DNA of 26,715 nt from a virus (taxonomy: Duplodnaviria; Caudoviricetes). A model generated the notes under the pieces. That model searched no databases. It was not told where the DNA came from and saw only the letters and a list, made by a program, of their open reading frames with translations. How positions within the stretch are numbered: the stretch's first letter is position 1; each line of letters opens with the position of its first letter. Shown here piece after piece: positions 1 through 17,787 of this stretch. The DNA lies in the IMG/VR virus record IMGVR_UViG_3300024247_000018, positions 1 to 26,715 of that record. One strand, given 5' to 3'. The position numbers and the translations under genes were made by a program.

Positions 1-777
1 CCAGTTTTTCTCAGGTACACTAGCATTTGTAGTAATACTCATATCTAAATCAGGACGGCCGTTATCAACAACATAGTCTAGCACACGGAATGTATTCTTA
101 TCTAGTAGTGGCTCGCCGCCTGTCATTCTAAAGTGTTTTAGTTTAGGATATAAAGTTGGCCACCATTTCCAAAACGCTTCTACATAAGGATTATGTTCTT
201 TTACTGGAATAGGATATTGTCCTGTTTCTTTAAAATACTCTATACTATTGTGTGGGACCTTTGTAGGATAAGGTCCGTTGCGTTCTATATCTTCTGCCCA
301 CTTGCTACTTAAATGGGGGCTACAATAGCTACACGCTAAATTACATGCATGATTAAAATTTACTTCTAAGTAGCGTGGCTCAATATCTCCATCTGCACCT
401 TTAGCAAGTACATCGTTCCAGCCTTCCTGAGCCCATGGCTCTGATGAACGATAAAACCTATCACTTAAATGGTCTCCTTGCATCGCTTCTACTTTCCAAC
501 AGGTACTGCACCCGCTAGGCTTGCCGCCAGATAACATCTCAGCACGTTCTTGTTTCTTTTGTTTAGTATTGTGAAGTGCTTTAAAGTTTTGTTCAACTTC
601 GTCTGCATCTATTTTATGTAAAGGAGGCAAGAAACAACTATTTGTTAATCCTGTAGTTAAATGTATACTACTCCATAGCCATTTAGCCATACACATTGTA
701 GGTGACAATTCGTCAAGTAACGGAATTACTTCTAGTGCAGCAGCTTGTGGGTCTGTTTCTGTTAATCTTTTAGCCAA
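1..777 (-). CDS. Radical SAM protein with N-terminal Twitch/SPASM-like Cys cluster (3' end runs off the window)
   Basis: Not in the ORF track; translated by hand: (M)AKRLTETDPQAAALEVIPLLDELSPTMCMAKW...NSCFLPPLH...CSTCWKVE...YLEVNFNHACNLACSYCSP...FRMTGGEPLL...ITTN. It has CxxxCxxC and GGEP motifs. Likely TTG start at 777 with GAGGA 6 nt upstream, overlapping the end of 762..1415. The frame is open to base 1. Confidence 0.9.
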   Translation of the reverse strand, partial: MAKRLTETDPQAAALEVIPLLDELSPTMCMAKWLWSSIHLTTGLTNSCFLPPLHKIDADEVEQNFKALHNTKQKKQERAEMLSGGKPSGCSTCWKVEAMQGDHLSDRFYRSSEPWAQEGWNDVLAKGADGDIEPRYLEVNFNHACNLACSYCSPHLSSKWAEDIERNGPYPTKVPHNSIEYFKETGQYPIPVKEHNPYVEAFWKWWPTLYPKLKHFRMTGGEPLLDKNTFRVLDYVVDNGRPDLDMSITTNASVPEKNW

Positions 778-1415
778 GGATATTCCTCTAGTATATATTC
801 TGCAAATACTGTATGTGTTTTAGGTCCAGGATGAGCATTGTCTAACGCATCATCGGCAGAAGGGTAAAGTTTCTTGTCATGAAAGTGACATAAATTTTCA
901 TAATCTTGAGGTGTGGTATACTTTAATTCTAATGTATTTCTTATTTTATGATATATAATTGGTGCAAAACTTATATATTTTATTCCTAAATCCTTTAAGT
1001 AATATCCTGTAAAATCTGCATACATTTTTGAAAGAAATATACCCGTAGCGTCATTATAAATACGACCATAAAACGCTTTTGCAGTTTTATTGGTGCCCGT
1101 GTCCCATGGTCCAATATTTTCATAGCCTATTTCAGTAACTAAATCTAAAATTTTGCACCAGCGTTCTATAAACGTCCAGTGAACTATACATATATCATCT
1201 TTTTGAAATTTGAAGTTTTTTATTCTGTTTACAATTTCTAAATTAGAACACCCTGGCTTCGATTGATTACTAAGTTCTATATCTAACCTTTCTGCTATTA
1301 TAGAAGGCCATGCAAGATTGCTATGCACCGGTCCTGCGTGACCATCTGTTGTACAACAGTCTTGCAATCCGTGACCGTATGTATAACTGCATCCAAATGT
1401 TACTAATCTTTTCAT
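762..1415 (-). CDS. SGNH/GDSL-like hydrolase (possible carbohydrate O-acyl esterase/transferase)
   Basis: Block I-like FGCSYTYG, block II-like SKPGCSN, block V-like DNAHPG (DxxHP). Confidence 0.7.
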   Translation of the reverse strand: MKRLVTFGCSYTYGHGLQDCCTTDGHAGPVHSNLAWPSIIAERLDIELSNQSKPGCSNLEIVNRIKNFKFQKDDICIVHWTFIERWCKILDLVTEIGYENIGPWDTGTNKTAKAFYGRIYNDATGIFLSKMYADFTGYYLKDLGIKYISFAPIIYHKIRNTLELKYTTPQDYENLCHFHDKKLYPSADDALDNAHPGPKTHTVFAEYILEEYPWLKD

Positions 1416-1432
1416 TTACTATATCCAAAAAT

Positions 1433-2707
1433 TTATAATGCTTCTAATAAATTGTTCTTTAGGTCTATATGCATTGTATTTGTTCTATATACCCAATGCC
1501 AGTAATTATGAATCAAAATATCATAACAATCGAAATACATTTGGTTAAGTTCTTTGTCTGATTTGTTTATAATATTTTCAATCTCTTTATATGCTGCTGA
1601 AAGTCGATCTATTTCATCTTCAATAGTATCATAAGTTTCATCAATAATCCCATCAAAGGTTTTGTAACCTAGCTTCCTTAAACACTTAAGATCATTTTGA
1701 GCGCCTATTAAAATAAAGGGCTGCATAAAAATCATAGGTTTAAAAATCTTTTCGCTAAAGAAATTTTGATTATTTGGTAAGTAAGTTTCTGTAACTATAT
1801 GTAAATACGAGTCATAAAATTTTTCTACTTTTAAATCTATTGTAGGATTTTCTGTATTTGCATCAATTCCGTCGTTAAATGTTAGAGGCAAAATGTTTTC
1901 TAATTCTGTAATTTTTTGTATTGTATCGTCGGGTAATTTATCTGACTGAAGCATTAGTTGGTTTATACTTTTATCCCAATAATAAGAACTATCATCTACA
2001 ATCTTATGACAAGTTAAAACACCTTTATGTCTATACTTTGAAAGTAAACTTGCAAGAATTATACGGTGCTTATGCGGTCTCCTATTTAAACATACAAACT
2101 TGTGCTGTCTGTTTTTTCTTGGCAAATGAAACAATCCTTCTCTACCATAATGGTTTACATTAAAACTGCTTTGTCCTAGATACTGTTGTTCCCACCAATT
2201 ATAATATATGTTTTTTGCTCCATACGTCGGTTCTTTCATATTACCTGTCAACATAACAAAATTACTATAAGATAAATTATATCTTTGTTTTATGTAATCT
2301 ATAGCTATTTTAAAGAAGCCCTCATGATCCCAACCTTCCATGTGGTTAATCATAAGTATTTTACATCTACCATTTCTAACATTTTCTAAATGTTCTACAG
2401 GTATATCTATAACATCGCCTAAATCTAACTCATTATGTACAGGATTCCAAGGAATAGGAAAATAATACTTTCCTTTATAAGAAGAAAAATTATCTTTTGT
2501 TAAAAATTTATAAACTTTCCAGGCTATATTTTGTACTGCACCGACTGCTATATATGGATCTCCGTGCGCATGAAATTTGTCAGGATGATCAAGTAGTATC
2601 CGTTTATTTAATCCACAATGAAAACTATGGAGGGCAAATCCATTAGGATCCCTAGGCCAATATTCTTCTACTAAATCATCTCTTGTATAAATGGCAACCT
2701 TTTCCAT
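1433..2707 (-). CDS. Putative glycosyltransferase (C-terminal half resembles GT10/GT-B sugar-nucleotide binding region)
   Basis: 424-aa ORF with FVCLNRRPHKHR and YLHIVTET...FFSEKIFKPM...PFILIG...LGYKTF...IDETYD, reminiscent of the E-(N/T)...(T/S)EK fucosyltransferase motif. CDS certain, function inferred. Confidence 0.5.
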   Translation of the reverse strand: MEKVAIYTRDDLVEEYWPRDPNGFALHSFHCGLNKRILLDHPDKFHAHGDPYIAVGAVQNIAWKVYKFLTKDNFSSYKGKYYFPIPWNPVHNELDLGDVIDIPVEHLENVRNGRCKILMINHMEGWDHEGFFKIAIDYIKQRYNLSYSNFVMLTGNMKEPTYGAKNIYYNWWEQQYLGQSSFNVNHYGREGLFHLPRKNRQHKFVCLNRRPHKHRIILASLLSKYRHKGVLTCHKIVDDSSYYWDKSINQLMLQSDKLPDDTIQKITELENILPLTFNDGIDANTENPTIDLKVEKFYDSYLHIVTETYLPNNQNFFSEKIFKPMIFMQPFILIGAQNDLKCLRKLGYKTFDGIIDETYDTIEDEIDRLSAAYKEIENIINKSDKELNQMYFDCYDILIHNYWHWVYRTNTMHIDLKNNLLEAL

Positions 2708-2708
2708 A

Positions 2709-3629
2709 CTATTCCTCTATATCTATAATTTCATCTAATCTAGTAGGATTTTGATATACTTCTTTAAAAAATTTACTTTGCTTACTACCTAAAGGAGTTA
2801 TTGCTATTGGTATATCTAGTTTACTAATAAGTTTACTACCAAGTTCTTCAATAGAGTCTTGTAGTCCTTCTGTTGATACCTTTGGTTCAACTTCTTCCCA
2901 CATACTATTAAGGTATTCAAAATCGCGGACATTTATGTAATCCCAATCTGTACACATTGTTTTATACAGTCCTTCGCGGGCTCCGTAAATTGCCCATTTT
3001 CCGTATTCTACATCTGCTCCTACCATTAACCAAATATACAAACGATGAAGATTTTTCCAATGATTTTTGTGGAATTCTTCAACAGTGACTTTTACGCCTC
3101 TGTCAAGAGCCATTTTTACACCTTCGCGAAACCCTGCTCTCCATGCTTGTTGTGCTGTTGCATTATTATAAACATCTGAAAAACAACTATTTTGTTGTAT
3201 ATACTGAACGTCCCAACAAAAATCTACTTGTGCATGTGCATTCTTAGGATCTGCGTTTTCATGTGTGCGCATTTTTAAAACGAAATCTTTAGGCCAGCAT
3301 TTTATGCCGCCGTTGCCGTACATTAGCCCATTTACAATATTCTTTCCGGCCCAGCTTATTACACAACTTTGTAAATCAGTATGTTCTTCAAAATTGATTT
3401 CTTGGTCTAAAAAATTTGGTCTAATTCTGTTGTCGCCGTCAATTGTAATAAACCTATCTGTTTCTGAAAGTTCTGCACATGCTTTGTGTGCTGAATCAGA
3501 TCCTTTTACACCGTGTACACGTTTTGCCCATGGCACCTTTGTGCATAGGTCTGCATAATTCTGCTCTGCATTTGGTTCGTCATAGCTTAAATAAATTATA
3601 TCGTAATCTAGAGGTTTGAATTTACTCAT
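2709..3629 (-). CDS. GT-A fold (GT2-like) glycosyltransferase-like protein
   Basis: DIIYLSYDEP first strand, AHKACAE helix, FITIDGDN (DxD), YGNGGIKCW, AWRAGFREGVKM. ATGA overlap with the upstream gene at 3626..3629. Confidence 0.65.
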   Translation of the reverse strand: MSKFKPLDYDIIYLSYDEPNAEQNYADLCTKVPWAKRVHGVKGSDSAHKACAELSETDRFITIDGDNRIRPNFLDQEINFEEHTDLQSCVISWAGKNIVNGLMYGNGGIKCWPKDFVLKMRTHENADPKNAHAQVDFCWDVQYIQQNSCFSDVYNNATAQQAWRAGFREGVKMALDRGVKVTVEEFHKNHWKNLHRLYIWLMVGADVEYGKWAIYGAREGLYKTMCTDWDYINVRDFEYLNSMWEEVEPKVSTEGLQDSIEELGSKLISKLDIPIAITPLGSKQSKFFKEVYQNPTRLDEIIDIEE

Positions 3630-4978
3630 TTAAATATCTCATATCCATAATTTTCAAAGTACTTAGTAGTGTATATACTAAGTTCCATTTCAGTAGGATC
3701 CCAGCCATCGTCAAAGTCTAAATAAATTTCTGTATCTCGAATCATTTGTTCAACAGAAACTGTAATTGACTTTAATAAGATATTTGGGTCATACTTTTCA
3801 GTAACACTAAAATACACAGTGTCATTTTTAGAATACCCTGCAAGTGTTATAAACTTTTTAGTTGCGGGGTCTAAAATTAATTCCCACCTTTTTAATTGAT
3901 TATTTTGTCTAATAAGCAAATCATGTACTTTTCCTGAATGAAAACTGTATAATTCTTTACCTATTAAAAGTTTATCTCCGTTTGTTAACTCGTTATTTTT
4001 TTTACTACTGCTGTGCATTTTTAAAAAGTCTTTTTCTATAGAATAAATGTCTTTAGTAGTTAAATTTATAACACTAAACCCATCATTATTGTATTCTATT
4101 AAATTATTTCCAGAATAGAAAAAAATGTCTCCAAAAGTGTGTTTATGTACAAGTTCATTTATATCAATCATATATAATTTATTATTATCTAAAAACTTAT
4201 CTCCTACAGTAGTCGGATCTTGAAATTTAAGATCTTTATTACTATCATCATATAGAATTACGTTTTCTACAATTAATTCACAATTACGTTTGCTAAAGTT
4301 TGTATTCTTTTTCTGATCTTTTTTAATTTTGTACACATTGCCATTATGATAGACATGTTGTCCAGTCACGTGATCTAGTTCTTTATACCATACATCAACA
4401 TGTATTCCGTCATATATTGGCACAGTGACTTCTAAAGATATTACATGATCTCTTGTTGATATATCTGACAACTTTACATCTTCAACAAAAAGCAATGTAT
4501 TGTCAAAATTAAGATCTTCACCTGGTTCGTTGTCTTTTAAAAATCTATAAACATTGTTGTTAAAAAAGACTAATTGATCTTTCCTATATCCATCTTGTTT
4601 GATAAAAATATCTATACTTACACCGTCGTATATTTTTTCTAAGTTAAAATGTCCTTCGCCGCCATTAATAGTTCTCGAGAATTCATGGATAAAAGATTCA
4701 GCACTATTATAATGATCTTCGTAGTTAATTTCTTTTACGACGACCTGTTTTAATGAAAAATCATATACAACTACAAAATCTGAGACACTTTTAGTTCCTT
4801 CTAAAATAGGCTTTACAATTTCTGTAGCAACTGAAACTATTTCGTATTCGGTGTCGATAGGTCTACGATTGGTAATTTTATATATTTTGCCGGTTGATTT
4901 TTCATAAGAAACATAGCTTTCATTTTGCTGTGCTTGCTGTACTTTAATACTATCGAGTAATTCTCTTAAATTAGACAT
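3626..4978 (-). CDS. Hypothetical protein with internal duplicated CBM5/12-like modules
   Basis: 450-aa ORF coupled to both neighbours (8-nt and 4-nt overlaps). Internal repeat at aa116-172 and aa188-244. Confidence 0.75.
   Translation of the reverse strand: MSNLRELLDSIKVQQAQQNESYVSYEKSTGKIYKITNRRPIDTEYEIVSVATEIVKPILEGTKSVSDFVVVYDFSLKQVVVKEINYEDHYNSAESFIHEFSRTINGGEGHFNLEKIYDGVSIDIFIKQDGYRKDQLVFFNNNVYRFLKDNEPGEDLNFDNTLLFVEDVKLSDISTRDHVISLEVTVPIYDGIHVDVWYKELDHVTGQHVYHNGNVYKIKKDQKKNTNFSKRNCELIVENVILYDDSNKDLKFQDPTTVGDKFLDNNKLYMIDINELVHKHTFGDIFFYSGNNLIEYNNDGFSVINLTTKDIYSIEKDFLKMHSSSKKNNELTNGDKLLIGKELYSFHSGKVHDLLIRQNNQLKRWELILDPATKKFITLAGYSKNDTVYFSVTEKYDPNILLKSITVSVEQMIRDTEIYLDFDDGWDPTEMELSIYTTKYFENYGYEIFK
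4247..4633 (-). repeat. Two diverged ~57-aa protein repeats (4463..4633 and 4247..4417), 72-aa period
   Basis: IYDGVSIDIFIKQDGYRKDQLVFFNNNVYRFLKD...LFVEDVKLSD aligns without gaps to IYDGIHVDVWYKELDHVTGQHVYHNGNVYKIKKD...LIVENVILYD. Confidence 0.8.
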
Positions 4979-5813
4979 TGAGTAACACCTTGTATCTTTC
5001 TAGCACAGGAGTTTTATTTACAAACTCATTTTCTGTGTAGTGTAATATACCTGACTGTAAAAAATTTCCTATTTTTATTTCACATTTAGGATTAACATAA
5101 CATCCTACTTTATCTAACCAACTCTGGGTTACTTGTTCCCAGCCTTGACAATACGGCTTCATGTGAGTGAATGTAGGATTTTTGACATACTTGTTTGTTA
5201 TTTTACTAGTGCAATTTAAATTTATTGACGCAATAGCAGCAACTATATCCATACTAGCAAAGTTAGGAGTAAATTTATCTAGCTCTATTTTATAAAATTC
5301 TTCATAATTTTTAACAATTAATTCTACTTCTTTATAAAAATTTTGAGCAAATTCATTCTTCTTAAAATAATGAAATCCAGAAAAAAGATTAGGAAGATTA
5401 TTATCAATAAATGCTTTTCTATAATAACTTGTATCTGCTATATTTCCTCTGTAATCATAAACTTTACTTGTATAGTATACATCGTAATTTTCTAAAAATT
5501 GCCACCACGAGTCTAAGTTTTCTAACACTAACATATCTGTATCTAAAACAATTGTTTCCTCATACGGTGTAGCATGATACAGTTTCCATCTATTTTCTAT
5601 TTTCCAATCTTTGTCTTTTGCATCATCACCAAACGGAATAGGAATAATGTTATCAAACAAGAATTTATAATTATCTGGTACTTCGTCATCTGTTACAATA
5701 CTAATAGGTGCATTGTTTGTAGCCTTTAAGCTCATTGCTAAAAGACAAGATTGAATAATATAATCACCAGAAGAAGAATTTTGTGCTAATACTAAAAAAC
5801 CTTTATTGTTCAT
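4971..5813 (-). CDS. GT-A fold glycosyltransferase (GT8-like/nucleotide-diphospho-sugar transferase)
   Basis: KGFLVLAQN start, ISIVTD, FDNII, TPYEETIVLDTD (DxD), late FTHMK His motif. Confidence 0.75.
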   Translation of the reverse strand: MNNKGFLVLAQNSSSGDYIIQSCLLAMSLKATNNAPISIVTDDEVPDNYKFLFDNIIPIPFGDDAKDKDWKIENRWKLYHATPYEETIVLDTDMLVLENLDSWWQFLENYDVYYTSKVYDYRGNIADTSYYRKAFIDNNLPNLFSGFHYFKKNEFAQNFYKEVELIVKNYEEFYKIELDKFTPNFASMDIVAAIASINLNCTSKITNKYVKNPTFTHMKPYCQGWEQVTQSWLDKVGCYVNPKCEIKIGNFLQSGILHYTENEFVNKTPVLERYKVLLNV

Positions 5814-6657
5814 TTGCTAGTTCCTTGTCTATTATACGCGACAAACTAAATTTATTCATAACATGTACATTTAATTTTTTTGTAGAAATAGCATGATATT
5901 CGCCGAGGTAATCTTTTTTTGCAACTAAAAAAAGCATATTTTCGTCAGTTACATTCCATAAAATATCTTGGTCTGTAACATATGTTAGTTTTCCTGGCAT
6001 CTTAGCTGCAAACTCTCCTTTTTGAAATCCATTTAAAATATGTATTGCAATACTAAATGCAAAGTCGTTTCTAAACAACAACGACTGAATTTGATAAATT
6101 CTTCTGTAATGATGCCACTCTTGCTGAATATGTTTTATCAAATCAAAAAACATTTTGTTTGTATCGCATTTTCTAAAAAATACACAAGTTGCCCAATAAA
6201 ATTCACAGCCGCTATCGCTGATAAACTCAAACTCTTTAGTGTTTCTAGTATTACTTAAATCATAAGAATCTTTATATAATAATAAGTCATGGGTGCTTTC
6301 GAAACAATTTAAGAACAAATCGTTAGATATAATAAAATCACTATCTAACAAAAGTGTTTCGTCGTATGGTGTTAGATCATATGCTGACGATCTTGAGGAG
6401 TTTTTAAAATTATCAGACTTTGATGATAATCCTCCATCAAAAAAATTACGTAAGTTCTTTGTATTATCGTGATCAATTTCTATTATTTTATCAAAAACAT
6501 TTTCATCAAAGGTTTTTTTCAAATAATCAACTCCATCCGTAATAATAGAAGTAGGTAGATTAAGATGTTGTTTTGCTTTTTTGGCTAGGAAAACAGCTTG
6601 TTTTACATAATCAATGTTACTATTATTTCTAGCAAAAACTATAATACCTTTACTCAT
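5803..6657 (-). CDS. GT-A fold glycosyltransferase (GT8-like), paralogue of 4971..5813
   Basis: KGIIVFARN start, TSIITD, FDKII, TPYDETLLLDSD (DxD), FRNDFAFSIA, VHVMNK. Confidence 0.75.
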   Translation of the reverse strand: MSKGIIVFARNNSNIDYVKQAVFLAKKAKQHLNLPTSIITDGVDYLKKTFDENVFDKIIEIDHDNTKNLRNFFDGGLSSKSDNFKNSSRSSAYDLTPYDETLLLDSDFIISNDLFLNCFESTHDLLLYKDSYDLSNTRNTKEFEFISDSGCEFYWATCVFFRKCDTNKMFFDLIKHIQQEWHHYRRIYQIQSLLFRNDFAFSIAIHILNGFQKGEFAAKMPGKLTYVTDQDILWNVTDENMLFLVAKKDYLGEYHAISTKKLNVHVMNKFSLSRIIDKELANEQ

Positions 6658-7035: not shown

Positions 7036-7064
7036 AGTATATAACAGATTTTTTGGTTTGTCAA
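7036..7064 (-). promoter_or_regulatory. Sigma70-type promoter TTGACA-17 nt-TATACT
   Basis: Minus strand reads TTGACA (7064..7059), a 17-nt spacer (7058..7042), then TATACT (7041..7036), inside the 70-nt intergenic gap about 30 nt upstream of the ATG at 7006. Confidence 0.8.
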
Positions 7065-7076
7065 GGAAAGATTGGC

Positions 7077-8387
7077 TTATAGATTAGATATTGTAGTGCC
7101 TGTAATAACGCCGCTGTATACTACTGTATCTAAAGTTTGGCCATTGATTAGTATTTCACCGTTAGGTACAGCTAGGAACATTTGAGTAGATGTTGTTCCT
7201 TTAACATATTCGTCTATAGTTTCGCCGTGGAAATCTTGGCATTGTATTTTTATTTGCATGGTACTATTATTGACCATTAATGCATCAATAATTATTTGAT
7301 TATTTGAATAACTAGTAGCACTATTACTTGAATAGATCCTTGTATAAGTAGTACTTAGATCTGCATAACCTTTTGTAGATGTAATTCCGTTTGAATCGCG
7401 TGTTTTATTATAACCTATTCTTATTTGACCAACAGCTGCCATTAAATTTTTCCATCTGTTAGTTTTTAATTCTCCACCAGTATATAATAGCGATAAAGCT
7501 GATCTTATTTCGCCGCCTGCATTGAAGAAACTATTTGTTAATGCTTCGTTTGGAAAATTTACTGTAAAAATATGATTTATAGATGTTCGCCATTGTAAGC
7601 TTCTTGAAGATGATAGTACAAATTGTCCACTAGGTACAAACAACGGAACTATATCTGCCTGATTAACAATGTCTATATCGAATCTGTTAGCGTCTAAACT
7701 TGCAACTTTTGTTTCTAAATTTGATATGTATGCGTCTTCTACTTTATCAGTTGATCCTAAATTTATTGCATAATCGCCTACTACATACGGATCAATACTT
7801 ATACCCGATCCATTTTGATGTGCATCTATACGAACTATATCCTTATATAACTTAATATATTCGATATCATCAACTACGTCTATTATATTATTAACACTAG
7901 AGCTTAACAGTGTTTGTCCGTATCCGTACCCTGCTTCTCCCCTGTCTGATACTACAGTTCCTTTTCCAAAATCTAAAGGACTTTTACTAGGAGTTAGGGC
8001 TCGTTGAGCATCTGTTAGACCGTCTACCTGTACAACTGTTGAAAATTGTGCGGCGTAAAAGAAGTTATATAAAGTTTGTGATTGACTATATCCAAGTGCA
8101 ACAATGTCATTTACCCAATAAGCTATGCCTACAGCTCTTGCTTTTCTGTATAGTCCATATCTTGTGCCGAGACTTGTGCTAAAAGAGTCATTACTCTCAT
8201 AAAGATTTAATATAAAGTCTTTAGCTGCTAGTACATTACTCTTAGAGGCACCACCCCAGTAGGTTGATTTAAATTCATCATACCAGTCGTCCCAGTCATA
8301 TGTTGGACCTGATGCATTACCAAGTATTTGACGTACTCTTCCGTAGAGATCGTTAAATCGCGATGCTGTAATAACAATATTAGGCAA
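7077..8387 (-). CDS. Virion structural/fibre-associated protein (FNxGGEIR family) with a 121-aa inserted domain
   Basis: TTG start with AAGGAG RBS. Paralogous to the N-terminal ~310 aa of 8434..11664 (TASRFNDL/TAARINNL, ILGN, GYGQ, HIFTVNF/HEFTVTF, FNAGGEIR/FNTGGEIR). Structural role inferred from context. Confidence 0.7.
   Translation of the reverse strand: MPNIVITASRFNDLYGRVRQILGNASGPTYDWDDWYDEFKSTYWGGASKSNVLAAKDFILNLYESNDSFSTSLGTRYGLYRKARAVGIAYWVNDIVALGYSQSQTLYNFFYAAQFSTVVQVDGLTDAQRALTPSKSPLDFGKGTVVSDRGEAGYGYGQTLLSSSVNNIIDVVDDIEYIKLYKDIVRIDAHQNGSGISIDPYVVGDYAINLGSTDKVEDAYISNLETKVASLDANRFDIDIVNQADIVPLFVPSGQFVLSSSRSLQWRTSINHIFTVNFPNEALTNSFFNAGGEIRSALSLLYTGGELKTNRWKNLMAAVGQIRIGYNKTRDSNGITSTKGYADLSTTYTRIYSSNSATSYSNNQIIIDALMVNNSTMQIKIQCQDFHGETIDEYVKGTTSTQMFLAVPNGEILINGQTLDTVVYSGVITGTTISNL
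7938..8300 (-). repeat. Inserted domain copy C (aa30-150 of 7077..8387)
   Basis: YDWDDWYDEF...GTRYGLYRKARAVGIAYW...LTPSK...GKGTVVSDRG. It lies between GNASGPT and EAGYGYGQ, which correspond to contiguous GNGSGTTGYGQ in the paralogue. Confidence 0.9.
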
Positions 8388-8405
8388 TCTTTTACTCCTT
8401 AATAC

Positions 8406-8412
8406 TATTTAT
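8406..8412 (-). promoter_or_regulatory. Putative late promoter element ATAAATA
   Basis: ATAAATAGTATTAAGGAG just upstream of the 8387 start. The same motif recurs in the gaps at 13187..13199 and 17781..17787 and resembles the T4 late promoter TATAAATA. Confidence 0.55.
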
Positions 8413-8433
8413 TTCCTGTTACGTATTCATTTT

Positions 8434-11400
8434 TTAAGATGGATCAGGTAACACTGTTATTGTGTCTTGTCCGGTAATCGAGCCACCGGGCCCTGTCACC
8501 GTCATTGTCACAGTGTGGTCTCCTTCTGCTGTGAATCCATAATTAGGAGTAAAATAGAAAGCCCCTGGAGTATAATTTACAACATCTGTTGCTGTTCCTG
8601 AAGGTCCTGTAATCGTGTATTCTACTGAGTCAATATCACCTTCTGCCTGTATAAATCCTCTACCTGTTGATCCAAATAGGGCAGTCCCTACAATACCTGA
8701 CCATTCAGGTTCTACCAACCAAGTTGGAGGAATAGGGTCAACTGATCCAAATACTTCAAAACTTACTGTTTGAGCTGCTGTAGTTCCTTGACTATTTTGT
8801 ATAGTAAGAGTAGCAGTTTTTGTTCCTACATCTTCTATTGTAAATGATGTTGCACCTGTAGACCCACTTGGTAGAGCTAAATCACTATAATTCACGTCAT
8901 AATTGGTTACAATACTTGCGGAAGATGCATTTGCAACTTGATAAATTAGTCTAACTGGTGTGTTTATTTCTACATCGCCAAATGGTTCTGGATAAAATGC
9001 ACTAATTGTAGGTTCTGGTGCATTAACTGGTATAGTTACTGTTGCAGTAACATTGCCGCCTGCATTAGATGCTGTAATTGTAGCAGTAACATTGCCTGTT
9101 CCGTCTGCTTCTTCAAATATTATTATATCACTACTTCCGTTAAGCGTAGCGTAGGTATCGAGCTGTGATACTCCTAGTCCTCCTAGAGTTACAGTAACAG
9201 TGTCAGCATTTACCACATTCCATGTTGCAAAAATAGGATCTCCCCAGTATGCAACACTTCTATTAAATGACCAGCTAGTGATAGTAGGAGGATCTATTTC
9301 AATTGGTGGTTCTTCGCCGTCGGTACTTGTATCATTTATTGTAATACTTGCAGATATTGATGTATTATCTATTGTTAGCGTCATTACTTCTTGGCCTTCA
9401 GTAATTACATCTGCTACTGGGTTGTAATTCTTTATTGCTGTATTAGCATAGACTGTAAATGCATCTTGTAATTCGTTTGATAGAGTGCCTCCAGGAGTAC
9501 CCCTATTTCCTACTGTTCCAAAATTGCCTCTATCATATACAACACCGTTGCCTGCAGTTATGAATGGTTTATCTTGTGTTGTAGAAGCTTCAAGGCCATT
9601 TAATCCGCCAAAGGTCTCAGTTTCTTTACCAGCCTGGTAGAAAAAGTTATCCATTGTTGTTGTTCGAGAAGCGCCTTCCTGTATAGCATTTGTCCAATAT
9701 GCTATACCGTATGCCCTTCCTTTTCTATGTAAGCCATATCTAGTGCCTATAGATGTATTAAATTCATCATTACTTTCAAATAAGTTTTGTATAAAGTCTT
9801 TATCTGATAGTACTGATTCTTTTGTTGAAGTCCAGTTGAACACTGGCTGGAACTCGTCATACCAGTCGTCCCAAGTATATGATACTCCTGATCCGCTTCC
9901 AGTACCAATTAAGTATGTTTTGTTAGGTGTAAGTGATCTTGAGGAGTCAGTTTCAGTTCCGTTTGCCTGTATTTCATACCTAGGATTGTCGCTATCATTT
10001 ACAGCACTCCAGAATACGTTTTCCCAAGCGGATACATTTCTATTATACTGACGTATATATCTTGGTGTCCAATATGCTATTCCGGCTGCATCGGGCAGTC
10101 TAAACAGTCCATATCTTGTACCATAATTTTGTGTTTGATATTCATTGTTTGAATTATAATACGTATATATAAAATTAAAACCTTCTATCGCTTCTTCTTT
10201 AGTTAGGCCCGCAAGCAATGAATTTTGAAATTCGTTATACCAATCATCTAAGGTGTAAGTTCCGTCTGAAAGGTCTTCACGTTGAATTCCAGTTATAGTA
10301 AATGGTACTTGTGTACCGTTTGTTACGTTAGTAGTTGTTAGTATGAAACTAACTGTGCCGCCTTCATTCATACTTGTTGAACTCGGAGTGACTGTGTATG
10401 TTGCATCACCTGCTGCTGCACTGCTGTCATTTATCAAAATAGATGTTCGTGCTAGACTATTATCTAGTGCAATTTCAAATGTTTCTATTCCTTCTGATTC
10501 AGAATCTGCTACGACTGCAAAAGTTGCTATTCCTATACCATTGCTATTAACTGTAAAATTACCTGTTAACTCGCCTGATACTAGGTCAGCAGCACTTACA
10601 CCTGTAATGGTATACGGTACTGTGCTTCCTGATGGAACATTAAATGTACTTAATGTAACAGTAAATGCCGATCCTTCGTTAACTGCAGACACACTCGGTG
10701 TCAATACATATGAAGCGCCGTCAGTTGGTGCTTGACCTGTTAGGTCAACATTTGTAAATACGCCTGGCGCCGGAACAGTTACGTCTCCAGTAGCTCTATA
10801 CAACGTAATTAAACTTCTTAGAGTTCCGTCAACATTATTATCTACATTACCGTCAGCTGCAACATCGTTAAATTCAACTCTAAAAGATAGTTGGGTTTCA
10901 CTTACTGCTCTTGCTTTTATTATAAAAATATTCCCTGCATACACACCACTGTAAGATCCTGCACCAATTTTAGTATATATAGTTTGATATCCGCTAGTTA
11001 AAGTAAAATTACCTACGCTAGTTCCACTTCCAGTAGTAGCAGTTGTAGCAGAACTGTTAAATCTTACTATTCCTACTTCGTTTGTTAATGCTGCCCAATC
11101 TAAACCTTTAGGAGTGCTAGCATTTTCGTTAGTCGGGTCAATTCTAATTTCGCCGCCTGTATTAAAATAGTGGCGTCTAGCATCGCTACTGCCAAACGTT
11201 ACAGTAAACTCATGAAATATTAAACTATTCCAATTACTCGTTCTTGTTGAAGTAACTGCTGTCTGAGAGCTTGCTTGGCTAGGATGAACATTATTTTTGT
11301 CAGTTTCAGTCTTGCCCATCAACGTTTCAAAATCTGCAATACCCTTTTTTGTTCCTTGTGGGTCTTCAGTTTCTATCCCGTCATTATTAATAATAAACGA

Positions 11401-11664
11401 AGTATCGTCTGCAATTACGTTTTGATTTTCTAAAACTGTTTGAATTTCTGTAACACTAGGGTCACTCGGACCAACTTGGTGAATTCTAGCTTTTACAATA
11501 TCTATGTATAAATTATTTAAGTTATCAGCATCAATTAAATCTCCCGGTAACACTTGAGAACTTTGTATGATCTGTCCATAACCGGTTGTACCGGAGCCAT
11601 TACCTAAAATTAGTTCAATCCTAGATTGTAGGTTATTAATTCTTGCTGCGGTAACTTCTTGCAT
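8434..11664 (-). CDS. Multi-domain virion protein: FNxGGEIR domain + 2 Calx-beta-like repeats + 2 inserted domains + 3 Ig/PKD-like domains
   Basis: 1076 aa; AAGGA RBS. Repeats of the form YxxTPS...NEG...VPYTITG...AD...EG.E.....D.......IND. C-terminal Thr-rich beta-sandwich units (PPTITSW, EPTISAF, TVTMTVTGPGGS). Confidence 0.75.
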   Translation of the reverse strand: MQEVTAARINNLQSRIELILGNGSGTTGYGQIIQSSQVLPGDLIDADNLNNLYIDIVKARIHQVGPSDPSVTEIQTVLENQNVIADDTSFIINNDGIETEDPQGTKKGIADFETLMGKTETDKNNVHPSQASSQTAVTSTRTSNWNSLIFHEFTVTFGSSDARRHYFNTGGEIRIDPTNENASTPKGLDWAALTNEVGIVRFNSSATTATTGSGTSVGNFTLTSGYQTIYTKIGAGSYSGVYAGNIFIIKARAVSETQLSFRVEFNDVAADGNVDNNVDGTLRSLITLYRATGDVTVPAPGVFTNVDLTGQAPTDGASYVLTPSVSAVNEGSAFTVTLSTFNVPSGSTVPYTITGVSAADLVSGELTGNFTVNSNGIGIATFAVVADSESEGIETFEIALDNSLARTSILINDSSAAAGDATYTVTPSSTSMNEGGTVSFILTTTNVTNGTQVPFTITGIQREDLSDGTYTLDDWYNEFQNSLLAGLTKEEAIEGFNFIYTYYNSNNEYQTQNYGTRYGLFRLPDAAGIAYWTPRYIRQYNRNVSAWENVFWSAVNDSDNPRYEIQANGTETDSSRSLTPNKTYLIGTGSGSGVSYTWDDWYDEFQPVFNWTSTKESVLSDKDFIQNLFESNDEFNTSIGTRYGLHRKGRAYGIAYWTNAIQEGASRTTTMDNFFYQAGKETETFGGLNGLEASTTQDKPFITAGNGVVYDRGNFGTVGNRGTPGGTLSNELQDAFTVYANTAIKNYNPVADVITEGQEVMTLTIDNTSISASITINDTSTDGEEPPIEIDPPTITSWSFNRSVAYWGDPIFATWNVVNADTVTVTLGGLGVSQLDTYATLNGSSDIIIFEEADGTGNVTATITASNAGGNVTATVTIPVNAPEPTISAFYPEPFGDVEINTPVRLIYQVANASSASIVTNYDVNYSDLALPSGSTGATSFTIEDVGTKTATLTIQNSQGTTAAQTVSFEVFGSVDPIPPTWLVEPEWSGIVGTALFGSTGRGFIQAEGDIDSVEYTITGPSGTATDVVNYTPGAFYFTPNYGFTAEGDHTVTMTVTGPGGSITGQDTITVLPDPS
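9499..10257 (-). repeat. Inserted domain copy A (aa470-722 of 8434..11664), itself interrupted by copy B
   Basis: YTLDDWYNEF...YGTRYGLFRLPDAAGIAYW...RSLTPNKTYLIGTG-[SGSGVS + copy B]-NFGTVGNRG. Confidence 0.85.
9526..9879 (-). repeat. Inserted domain copy B (aa596-713 of 8434..11664)
   Basis: YTWDDWYDEF...GTRYGLHRKGRAYGIAYW...GNGVVYDRG. 40 of the first 62 aa are identical to copy C (hand count), and there is a 17-nt exact match between 9857..9873 and 8278..8294. Confidence 0.9.
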
Positions 11665-13186: not shown

Positions 13187-13199
13187 TATTTATATTTAT
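13187..13199 (-). promoter_or_regulatory. Putative late promoter: overlapping ATAAATA / TATAAATA
   Basis: Minus strand ATAAATATAAATAAGTATA in the 46-nt gap before the 13158 start; contains an exact T4-type TATAAATA (13194..13187). Confidence 0.6.
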
Positions 13200-17780: not shown

Positions 17781-17787
17781 TATTTAT
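17781..17787 (-). promoter_or_regulatory. Putative late promoter element ATAAATA
   Basis: TAATAAATACAGTATAGGA directly after the stop codon of the giant gene and before the 17766 start. Confidence 0.5.

Follow-up and report, generated by a model that had tools for sequence, protein, structure and literature searches.

The Ig-like domains of phage virion proteins are reportedly exchanged horizontally, a case that Fraser et al. are said to have described in 2006. Accessory phage domains, as presented in the accessible part of one study, interrupt a conserved core, gather in large phages and are exchanged, with adhesion or stability proposed as their role; for the extra domains of tail sheath proteins, both stability and adhesion have been proposed in the same text (PMC9230969). 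The palindromic elements of Rickettsia, according to the available portion of another paper, insert in frame into unrelated proteins (PMC6649704). Among bacterial surface proteins, RsaA's N-terminal domain was described, in the part of the report that is accessible, as binding O-antigen (PMC6978808), and O-antigen binding was modelled for the DUF4214 protein Psh of Pseudomonas putida in the available part of a preprint (bioRxiv 10.64898/2026.09.02.748959). RsaA_NTD, a family characterised by O-antigen binding that depends on calcium, is part of the Caulobacter S-layer, and bacteria appear to use the DUF4214 repeat to anchor surface proteins on O-antigen, or to mask it. None of the DUF4214 literature found, in which subscription journals were thinly covered, concerned phage virion proteins by its title, and no relevant paper on inserted or shuffled phage domains turned up in that same coverage.

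The window analysed here (26,715 nucleotides, positions 1 to 26,715 of the virus record IMGVR_UViG_3300024247_000018) belongs to a marine jumbo phage, in which two likely virion proteins hold three in-frame copies of a domain of about 120 residues, one of them nested in another. Probably, this is a domain with a DUF4214-like core that serves as a surface module for host surface sugars, was placed by old and rare in-frame insertions and is swapped by recombination. Gene p1 (7077..8387, minus strand) encodes a likely virion protein of 436 aa and hosts copy C (7938..8300, minus strand; 121 aa), placed after residue 29. Gene p2 (8434..11664, minus strand; 1076 aa), the host of copies A and B, comprises an N-terminal virion domain (about 10753-11664, minus strand) paralogous to p1, two beta repeats and a PKD/Ig-like tail. 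Copy A including B spans 9499..10257 on the minus strand, its main part lying at 9880-10257 and its 9-residue tail at 9499-9525, and copy B (9526..9879, minus strand; 118 aa) is nested in the C-terminal loop of A. These three copies with their coordinates, frame and end motifs had been reported in an earlier, sequence-only reading, and all were found as claimed: the three minus-strand copies are in frame and free of stop codons, and copy C is 52% identical to B (BLASTP E 3e-32) and shares 38% identity with the first part of A (E 1e-16). PHROGs contains no family for the domain, nor for its hosts p1 and p2.

Each of the three copies interrupts a recognisable context. The p1 and p2 proteins share a paralogous N-terminal domain, and the motif of GNxSG followed by GYGQ, said to be interrupted by copy C, is continuous at the same site in p2. 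Copy A splits repeat 2 of p2 (9313..10401, minus strand; halves at about 10258-10401 and about 9313-9498), whereas repeat 1 (10408..10713, minus strand; residues 318-419) is intact and gives the uninterrupted state of site A. A profile of repeat 1 matches repeat 2 as two halves flanking copy A, so that the proposed split stands; the name Calx-beta-like given to this repeat is that of the sequence-only reading, as Pfam yielded no such match for the protein. The splitting of copy A by copy B was borne out by the p2 tree, in which five of the 12 orthologues carry A alone and end, by eye, more like the 9-residue tail after B than like the end of B itself. Nesting is preferred to a tandem A+B pair because the A-only alleles keep the tail, and the tandem pair was rejected. 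An assembly chimera had been named as a possible source of this arrangement; it is contradicted by a single contig and by diverged relatives of identical layout. Without a gap and with 13 differences, the contig (3,666 nt, from run X14, which may be the source sample) covers 7050-10715, and the layout recurs in L001, L002 and L114. That a chimera or a chance likeness explains the copies has a negligible probability and is refuted, because the junctions and the layout are shared by diverged relatives and by other contigs.

The domain also keeps stable boundaries, stands at non-homologous sites and occurs in many further host proteins, as had been expected of it. The copy reaches the end of the profile in 37 of 143 new matches, and the hosts, their remote contexts being judged by eye, contain tube, DUF4815, Ig, LCCL, glycine-rich and S8 peptidase domains. 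Its hosts include a T5-p140-like tube protein, and self-nesting was seen a second time; for the tube protein P0089, a search for empty alleles found none. A one-pattern scan of 185,579 prokaryote genomes gave no confirmed copy, and 50,697 annotated phage records gave none except one match at E 0.3. In five searched records, which are 12-27% complete for full genomes estimated at about 350 kb, each of the eight matches falls within a long open frame of a p1/p2 orthologue and none lies outside genes or in housekeeping genes. A homologue of p2, PQE65_gp360 of phage PA5oct (NC_071039), is found in a syntenic cluster and annotated with ESI-MS/MS detection; it is 31% identical and matched in the host domain only. 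Judging from this homologue of the shared domain, p1 and p2 are likely to be virion proteins. An accessory virion domain is recognised by its occurrence in unrelated virion proteins and by empty sites in relatives; the first was seen for the domain as a whole, the second for B and C.

Empty-site alleles, named in the sequence-only reading as a sign that would support mobility, exist for B and C, but none was found for A, for which an empty orthologous allele was sought among the relatives. Site C is empty in 18 of the 30 p1 orthologues of the tree, including L125, which is placed within or beside the filled group; its vacant site may be ancestral or may stem from a clean loss (AU p 0.39). When 55 copies were placed in a tree, a single group (22 rows, support 99/98) took in B and C, and the 14 C rows clustered (90/95); copies from the same genome do not pair, the grouping being by site. 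Within genomes the copies are synonymously saturated (pS 0.64-0.78 in 12 of 12 pairs), with no young near-identical copies among these pairs. By-site grouping together with saturation suggests, therefore, that each site was filled long ago; on the same grounds, concerted evolution within genomes was rejected. In every pair with computable dS, dN is below dS, which indicates purifying selection on the insert.

These observations bear on the dedicated or selfish mobile element proposed in the sequence-only reading. Junction repeats are no more frequent than chance would give (4 of 48 tests with p<0.05, none common), and neither terminal inverted repeats nor target duplications were found at the copies. 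No conserved RNA fold was detected over 15 copies, with z-scores from -2.8 to +2.6 (for copy B, -2.2 in one run and -1.3 in another), and Rfam gave no match in the window. In its first ten codons the domain shows no higher synonymous identity than in the interior (0.55 vs 0.65, two-fold sites). A self-mobile element is not supported, because end repeats and a conserved RNA fold are lacking, dN is below dS and the copies cluster by site. An insertion sequence, MITE or palindromic element is likewise not supported, as no terminal inverted repeat, target duplication, hairpin or young copies were found. Inteins start with Cys or Ser, end with His-Asn and have a beta HINT fold; the insert starts with Tyr, ends with Arg-Gly and is modelled as helical, and an intein was rejected on these terminal residues and on the model. 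Contigs from RNA libraries, in which DNA carry-over is possible and rare forms are dropped, bridge 7938, 8300, 9499/9526 and 9879 unspliced and contain no joint that skips an insert. A self-splicing intron was rejected on these bridged junctions and the lack of an Rfam match. A selfish in-frame element of the Rickettsia kind, or an insert of the intein or intron type that is later excised, would account for in-frame placement at unrelated sites and for nesting, but it is very improbable in view of the absent hairpin, Rfam match and intein end residues, the helical model, the bridged junctions and the location of eight of eight matches in the frames of p1/p2 orthologues.

A block of 475 bp at copy C (7938..8412, minus strand), running from a promoter-like motif through the ribosome site and the first 29 codons of p1 to the end of the copy, is exchanged among divergent phages, an exchange that came to light in this analysis. 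Its 5' edge is the motif ATAAATA (8406..8412, minus strand), located just upstream of p1. This motif is likely a late promoter and resembles the late promoter of T4; it has six matches in total vs 22.6 expected, four of the five minus-strand matches lie immediately upstream of virion-cluster genes, and all 8 aligned loci share it unchanged. Between the window and L003, dS is 0.09 in C as compared with 1.64 for the remainder of p1 and 1.61 for p2; the comparison with L006 gives 1.05 in C vs 0.66. The best change point falls at codon 142-157 in 7 of 21 pairs, the domain ending at codon 148 or 150, and in two further pairs of the 21 the break falls within the domain, a pattern expected of ordinary crossovers. 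A boundary-specific mechanism, too, would be expected to give breaks at the domain end again and again.

Such a mechanism, a phage recombinase or a homing-like gene conversion acting at the ends of the domain to copy or swap it, seems quite improbable. It would explain the seven pairs whose break is no more than 9 codons away from the domain end (an estimated three events at least), the runs of invariant DNA in the 3' third of C across both allele groups, the position of C, in 3 of 13 pairs, as the first- or second-ranked identity island, and the patchy distribution of B on the p2 tree. However, the exchanged block includes a further 112 bp upstream of the domain, as far as the promoter-like motif, some breaks fall inside the domain, and A and B show no swap comparable to that of C. 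The domain also has no end repeats, synonymous identity is not raised in its first ten codons, the same loci contain other near-identical islands, and swapping affects further genes as well.

The link to DUF4214, like the block-wise swapping of copy C, had been missed in the sequence-only reading. A compact domain, as proposed there, is predicted by the AlphaFold2 model of copy C (pLDDT 96.4, pTM 0.89), which is mostly helical. Foldseek gave no match at E<=0.001 in PDB or BFVD, and the VIA structure search over 48,161 chains gave a best Z of 4.6, with none >=5 and with the RsaA NTD absent among the best 50 matches. Sequence searches of solved structures yielded nothing useful and no solved host structure. 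These null searches do not amount to a new fold. With Pfam, copy B matches DUF4214 (PF13946) at E 1.6e-4 and 22.1 bits, another window copy at 14.8 bits and one not at all, all below the gathering cut-off of 23.2 bits. Matches at E<=0.1 were obtained for 12 of 27 copies, and 2 of 10 rescanned copies, picked from these 12, reach the cut-off (25.2 and 24.0 bits). The match extends over only about 35-60 residues. In the nearest Atlas clusters, DUF4214 occurs in 39% of members and RsaA_NTD (PF19198) in 26%, at a recognition value (2298) slightly below the Atlas threshold. The DUF4214-like motif, of which R, G, A, Y and W are invariant in 27 copies and Pro-Asp is variable, supplies five of the six invariant columns of the alignment. 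Alignment to DUF4214 repeats with hhalign gave 97.6% over 37 columns vs 0.07-0.41% for six controls, a test that is partly circular because the repeats were chosen by this motif. Taken at the sequence level, the core of the domain appears to be related to the bacterial surface repeat, and by analogy the domain may be sugar-binding.

The same history might instead have spread a structural or protein-binding decoration, acting in stability, fibre attachment or shielding, which we regard as possible though unlikely. The fold searches returned no carbohydrate-binding protein, only the core matches DUF4214, and stability is also among the roles proposed for extra sheath domains, in the accessible text at least (PMC9230969). 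The concentration of invariant columns in the DUF4214-like motif speaks against a decoration, as do the further putative binding modules of several carriers (e.g. CBM_5_12 and LCCL), and allele swapping among phages would fit a host-facing trait. A bolder proposal, which we hold to be improbable, is that jumbo phages made the DUF4214 repeat into a closed, insertable binding module whose alleles are swapped as a boundary-precise cassette by dedicated recombination; if true, it would place a host-range switch at the level of a single protein domain.

Under the preferred history of old, rare insertions, a domain now present at non-homologous sites, with B and C empty in relatives, would have entered each site in one or a few ancient, rare events of non-homologous recombination. 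Tidy boundaries could result from the survival of only those landings that were in frame and in loops, and a landing inside A would leave the split host repeat foldable, which a tandem copy would not. The copies were then inherited by site, with dN below dS. Copy C was exchanged together with the gene start among divergent phages, its 3' break lying at the domain end, which might reflect homologous recombination between conserved patches and selection against breaks inside the host fold. The insert would stay in the mature protein and aid adhesion of the virion, perhaps to O-antigen. These findings add an uncatalogued helical domain to those that phages shuffle over their particles, and the link to a bacterial surface family whose function is poorly known provides a testable ligand, O-antigen. 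As the allele swaps indicate, a module is able to sweep through divergent marine jumbo phages without its host gene moving along with it; from the dated breakpoints of these swaps one can ask what sets phage recombination sites, domain borders or DNA homology. A domain of about 120 residues tolerated in many loops is also a possible display scaffold.

Among known systems, the virion cluster of the Pseudomonas jumbo phage PA5oct is similar in its homologous host domain and in syntenic genes annotated as detected by mass spectrometry, but no copy of the domain was found in the annotated phage records apart from the one match at E 0.3. In contrast to the Rickettsia elements, the domain has no palindrome and no young multi-copy family, is under purifying selection and was seen here only in virion-type proteins. 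With DUF4214, which has Psh and RsaA_NTD as neighbours, it shares a motif of the type R-x-P-D-x-x-G-x-x-Y-W and the helices that follow. However, DUF4214 is a short tandem unit of secreted bacterial surface proteins, its matches being several short repeats that cover only profile positions about 45-92, whereas the phage domain has a single core per unit, which additions on its N- and C-terminal sides bring to about 120 aa. Finally, accessory phage domains are mostly beta-sandwiches, while the domain of the window is mostly helical, matches no solved fold in the Foldseek and VIA searches, nests within itself and is swapped with breaks that coincide with its boundary.

The three in-frame copies of a domain of about 120 residues described in the sequence-only reading were confirmed by sequence checks and pairwise comparison. 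Copy C (7938..8300) lies in p1, a likely virion protein of 436 aa (7077..8387, minus strand), while copy A (9499..10257), with copy B (9526..9879) nested inside it, lies in p2 of 1076 aa (8434..11664, minus strand); these places are non-homologous. All junctions are found on one contig of sequencing run X14 and the same junctions occur in diverged relatives, thus the layout is no assembly chimera. The Calx-beta label for the p2 repeats (repeat 1, 10408..10713, intact; repeat 2, 9313..10401, split by A) was the earlier reader's own, and Pfam does not assign Calx-beta here.

The window, which is the entire record, contains virion-type genes in a minus-strand run, then small enzyme-like genes. 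Completeness estimates of its relatives (67.6 kb corresponding to 19%) give a genome size near 350 kb, and at least 0.89 of the sampled words are present in 14 DNA runs from seawater or marine samples. The N-terminal domain of p2 matched only PA5oct-like Pseudomonas jumbo phages (11 of 50,697 annotated phage records, about 31% identity), and its PA5oct homologue is located inside a syntenic cluster where genes are annotated ESI-MS/MS. The motif ATAAATA, a likely late promoter, is located on the minus strand directly upstream of virion-cluster genes (8406-8412, 13187-13199 and 17781-17787), being otherwise depleted in the window (6 observed, 22.6 expected). The enzyme-like genes at 1-6657 form a conserved block adjoining the virion cluster; Pfam matches there were sub-threshold only, and by their motifs we take these genes to be of radical SAM, SGNH-like and glycosyltransferase appearance, possibly with a role in virion or host-surface glycans.

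Empty alleles in relatives, expected for a mobile domain, were found for sites B and C. At site A an empty orthologous allele was sought and not found: all orthologues found with repeat 2 contain A, so the empty state of this site is known from repeat 1 only. Site C is filled in 12 and empty in 18 of the 30 p1 orthologues in the tree, where the filled ones form a single group (support 100) together with the empty locus L125; the comparison of loss of C in L125 with C never having been present gave an AU p of 0.39. Record 3 of run X14 is a relative in which 2,013 letters separate the start of A from the p1 match, by hand calculation the same spacing as in L125. An empty-C phage appears to co-occur in this run with the window's type. 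Site B is filled in seven and empty in five of 12 A-bearing orthologues, with the states interleaved on the p2 tree, and nesting of B in A is favoured over a tandem pair because the ends of A-only alleles resemble, by eye, the short tail after B. In the sister group the domain follows repeat 1 in the linker in 6 of 30 rows and is absent in 12. The 1,542-aa p2 of locus L003 has its copy B at 7037-7501, with loops expanded by about 8 and 20 residues, and extra C-terminal repeats occur in this p2 and in that of L016.

A tree of 55 copies, in which the 'win' rows are the near-identical P0001 and P0005, shows inheritance by site: the B and C copies cluster together (99/98), with their origin among the A copies, and no two copies from one genome are paired. 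Saturation was seen in 12 of 12 within-genome pairs (pS 0.64-0.78), and all computable pairs have dN below dS, as under purifying selection. Junction repeats around 24 copies gave p<0.05 in four of 48 tests, none recurring; conserved RNA folding was not found over 15 copies, nor any Rfam match in the window. All eight domain matches in five partial records are in open p1 or p2 frames. Removal at the RNA level, also raised earlier, was not seen: RNA-library contigs of runs X15 and X16, where DNA carry-over is possible, bridge the junctions, keep the inserts and contain no joint skipping one. Together these results indicate that the domain entered new sites rarely and long ago, and that the DNA ends are unmarked. 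With unmarked ends, copies grouped by site and saturated pS, the proposal of a mobile element with a dedicated mechanism was not upheld.

The history of copy C departs from that of p1. Between the window and L003, dS is 0.09 in C and 1.64 in the remaining p1, while for the closer relative L006 the value for C (1.05) exceeds that for the host (0.66). A common C (dS 0.45-0.56) is found in L006, L012 and L016, on hosts at 2.0-2.5. The shared block extends from the promoter-like motif at 8406-8412 to the end of C. The best break fell at codons 142-157 in seven of 21 pairs, those with a common C type and different host lineages, and C ends at codon 148 or 150, so that these swaps end at the domain border; breaks inside C (codons 79 and 92) were found in two of the 21. 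At least three exchange events would lie behind the swaps. Breakpoints at the domain end might also be left by a boundary-specific enzyme, but no other positive sign of one was found and we consider it improbable; homologous exchange between conserved patches would be the preferred reading. The dS comparisons revealed no such pattern for A and B. In a control by sliding identity over 13 locus pairs, C was the first or second identity island in three pairs and 12th of 320 windows in the window-L004 pair, with other islands in the same loci at 0.92-0.98. These are mosaic phages in which C stands as one hot spot that recurs. Other recently exchanged islands (window about 15-815 and 2716-3715, L006 6351-6701; 92-98% identity against medians of 66-74%) are located in the first ORF, in a 306-aa ORF and at the end of the gene that lies upstream of p2.

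A 27-copy profile gave 1,728 matches at E<=0.001 among 1.84 billion representatives. The top 150 included 143 new ones; in 37 of these the copy extended to the profile end, and most of the others matched the core only. Carriers were annotated with Pfam (30 scanned) and PHROGs (31). One of them, P0089, was assigned to Baseplate_Tube_p140 (E 5e-17); it carries the domain at 256-384 and is 434 aa long, where the family has 298. The copy in this T5 p140-like baseplate tube protein is of a type close to the window's copies. Transfer into a quite different phage group is suggested; the P0089 locus and an empty allele were sought and neither was found. Four DUF4815 proteins have two internal copies apiece. 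Domains of the Ig, glycine-rich, LCCL or S8 peptidase kinds occur in other carriers, where the copies stand in tandem, at the C-terminus or internally. Protein P0071 (residues ~147-394), judged by eye against P0025 and P0074, probably represents an independent instance of the domain nested in itself, at the hairpin instead of the C-terminal loop used in the window. Also by eye, P0024 has three copies within Ig-like repeats, with uninterrupted repeats in the same protein, and the p1 orthologue P0020 (563 aa) has a different domain inserted in C, flanked by proline-rich linkers and having a precomputed DUF4214 match. At locus L128, where the cluster is arranged in freshwater style or in another unrelated way, a protein of 2,268 aa is interrupted in glycine-rich stretches by two copies (7104-7454 and 7998-8345).

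The AlphaFold2 model from a 27-row alignment (pLDDT 96.4, pTM 0.89) is mostly helical with one hairpin, and no fold match was found with Foldseek against PDB and BFVD or in the VIA structure search. Pfam DUF4214 matches in 12 of 27 copies (above cut-off in two of 10 rescanned), profile searches that run into DUF4214 proteins, and, more weakly, Atlas neighbours with DUF4214 and RsaA_NTD point to a DUF4214-like domain; the profile-profile match to DUF4214 (97.6%) is partly circular. Since the core alone is common to both, the domain is called DUF4214-like and not a DUF4214 member. According to PMC6978808, the RsaA NTD is helical and binds O-antigen; bioRxiv 10.64898/2026.09.02.748959 describes Psh, an RTX-DUF4214 protein conferring phage resistance, with modelled binding to O-antigen. 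By analogy, glycan binding by the domain may be taken as a lead.

Insertion would have been rare and illegitimate, with survivors filtered by folding, and the domain would be retained in the virion, where it might act in adhesion. Virion proteins interrupted by additional domains, which accumulate in large phages and are transferred horizontally, are described in PMC9230969 and PMC7824862. The present domain has the interruption of likely virion proteins and horizontal movement in common with them; what it adds to these known systems is its connection to DUF4214 and the exchange of alleles measured here.
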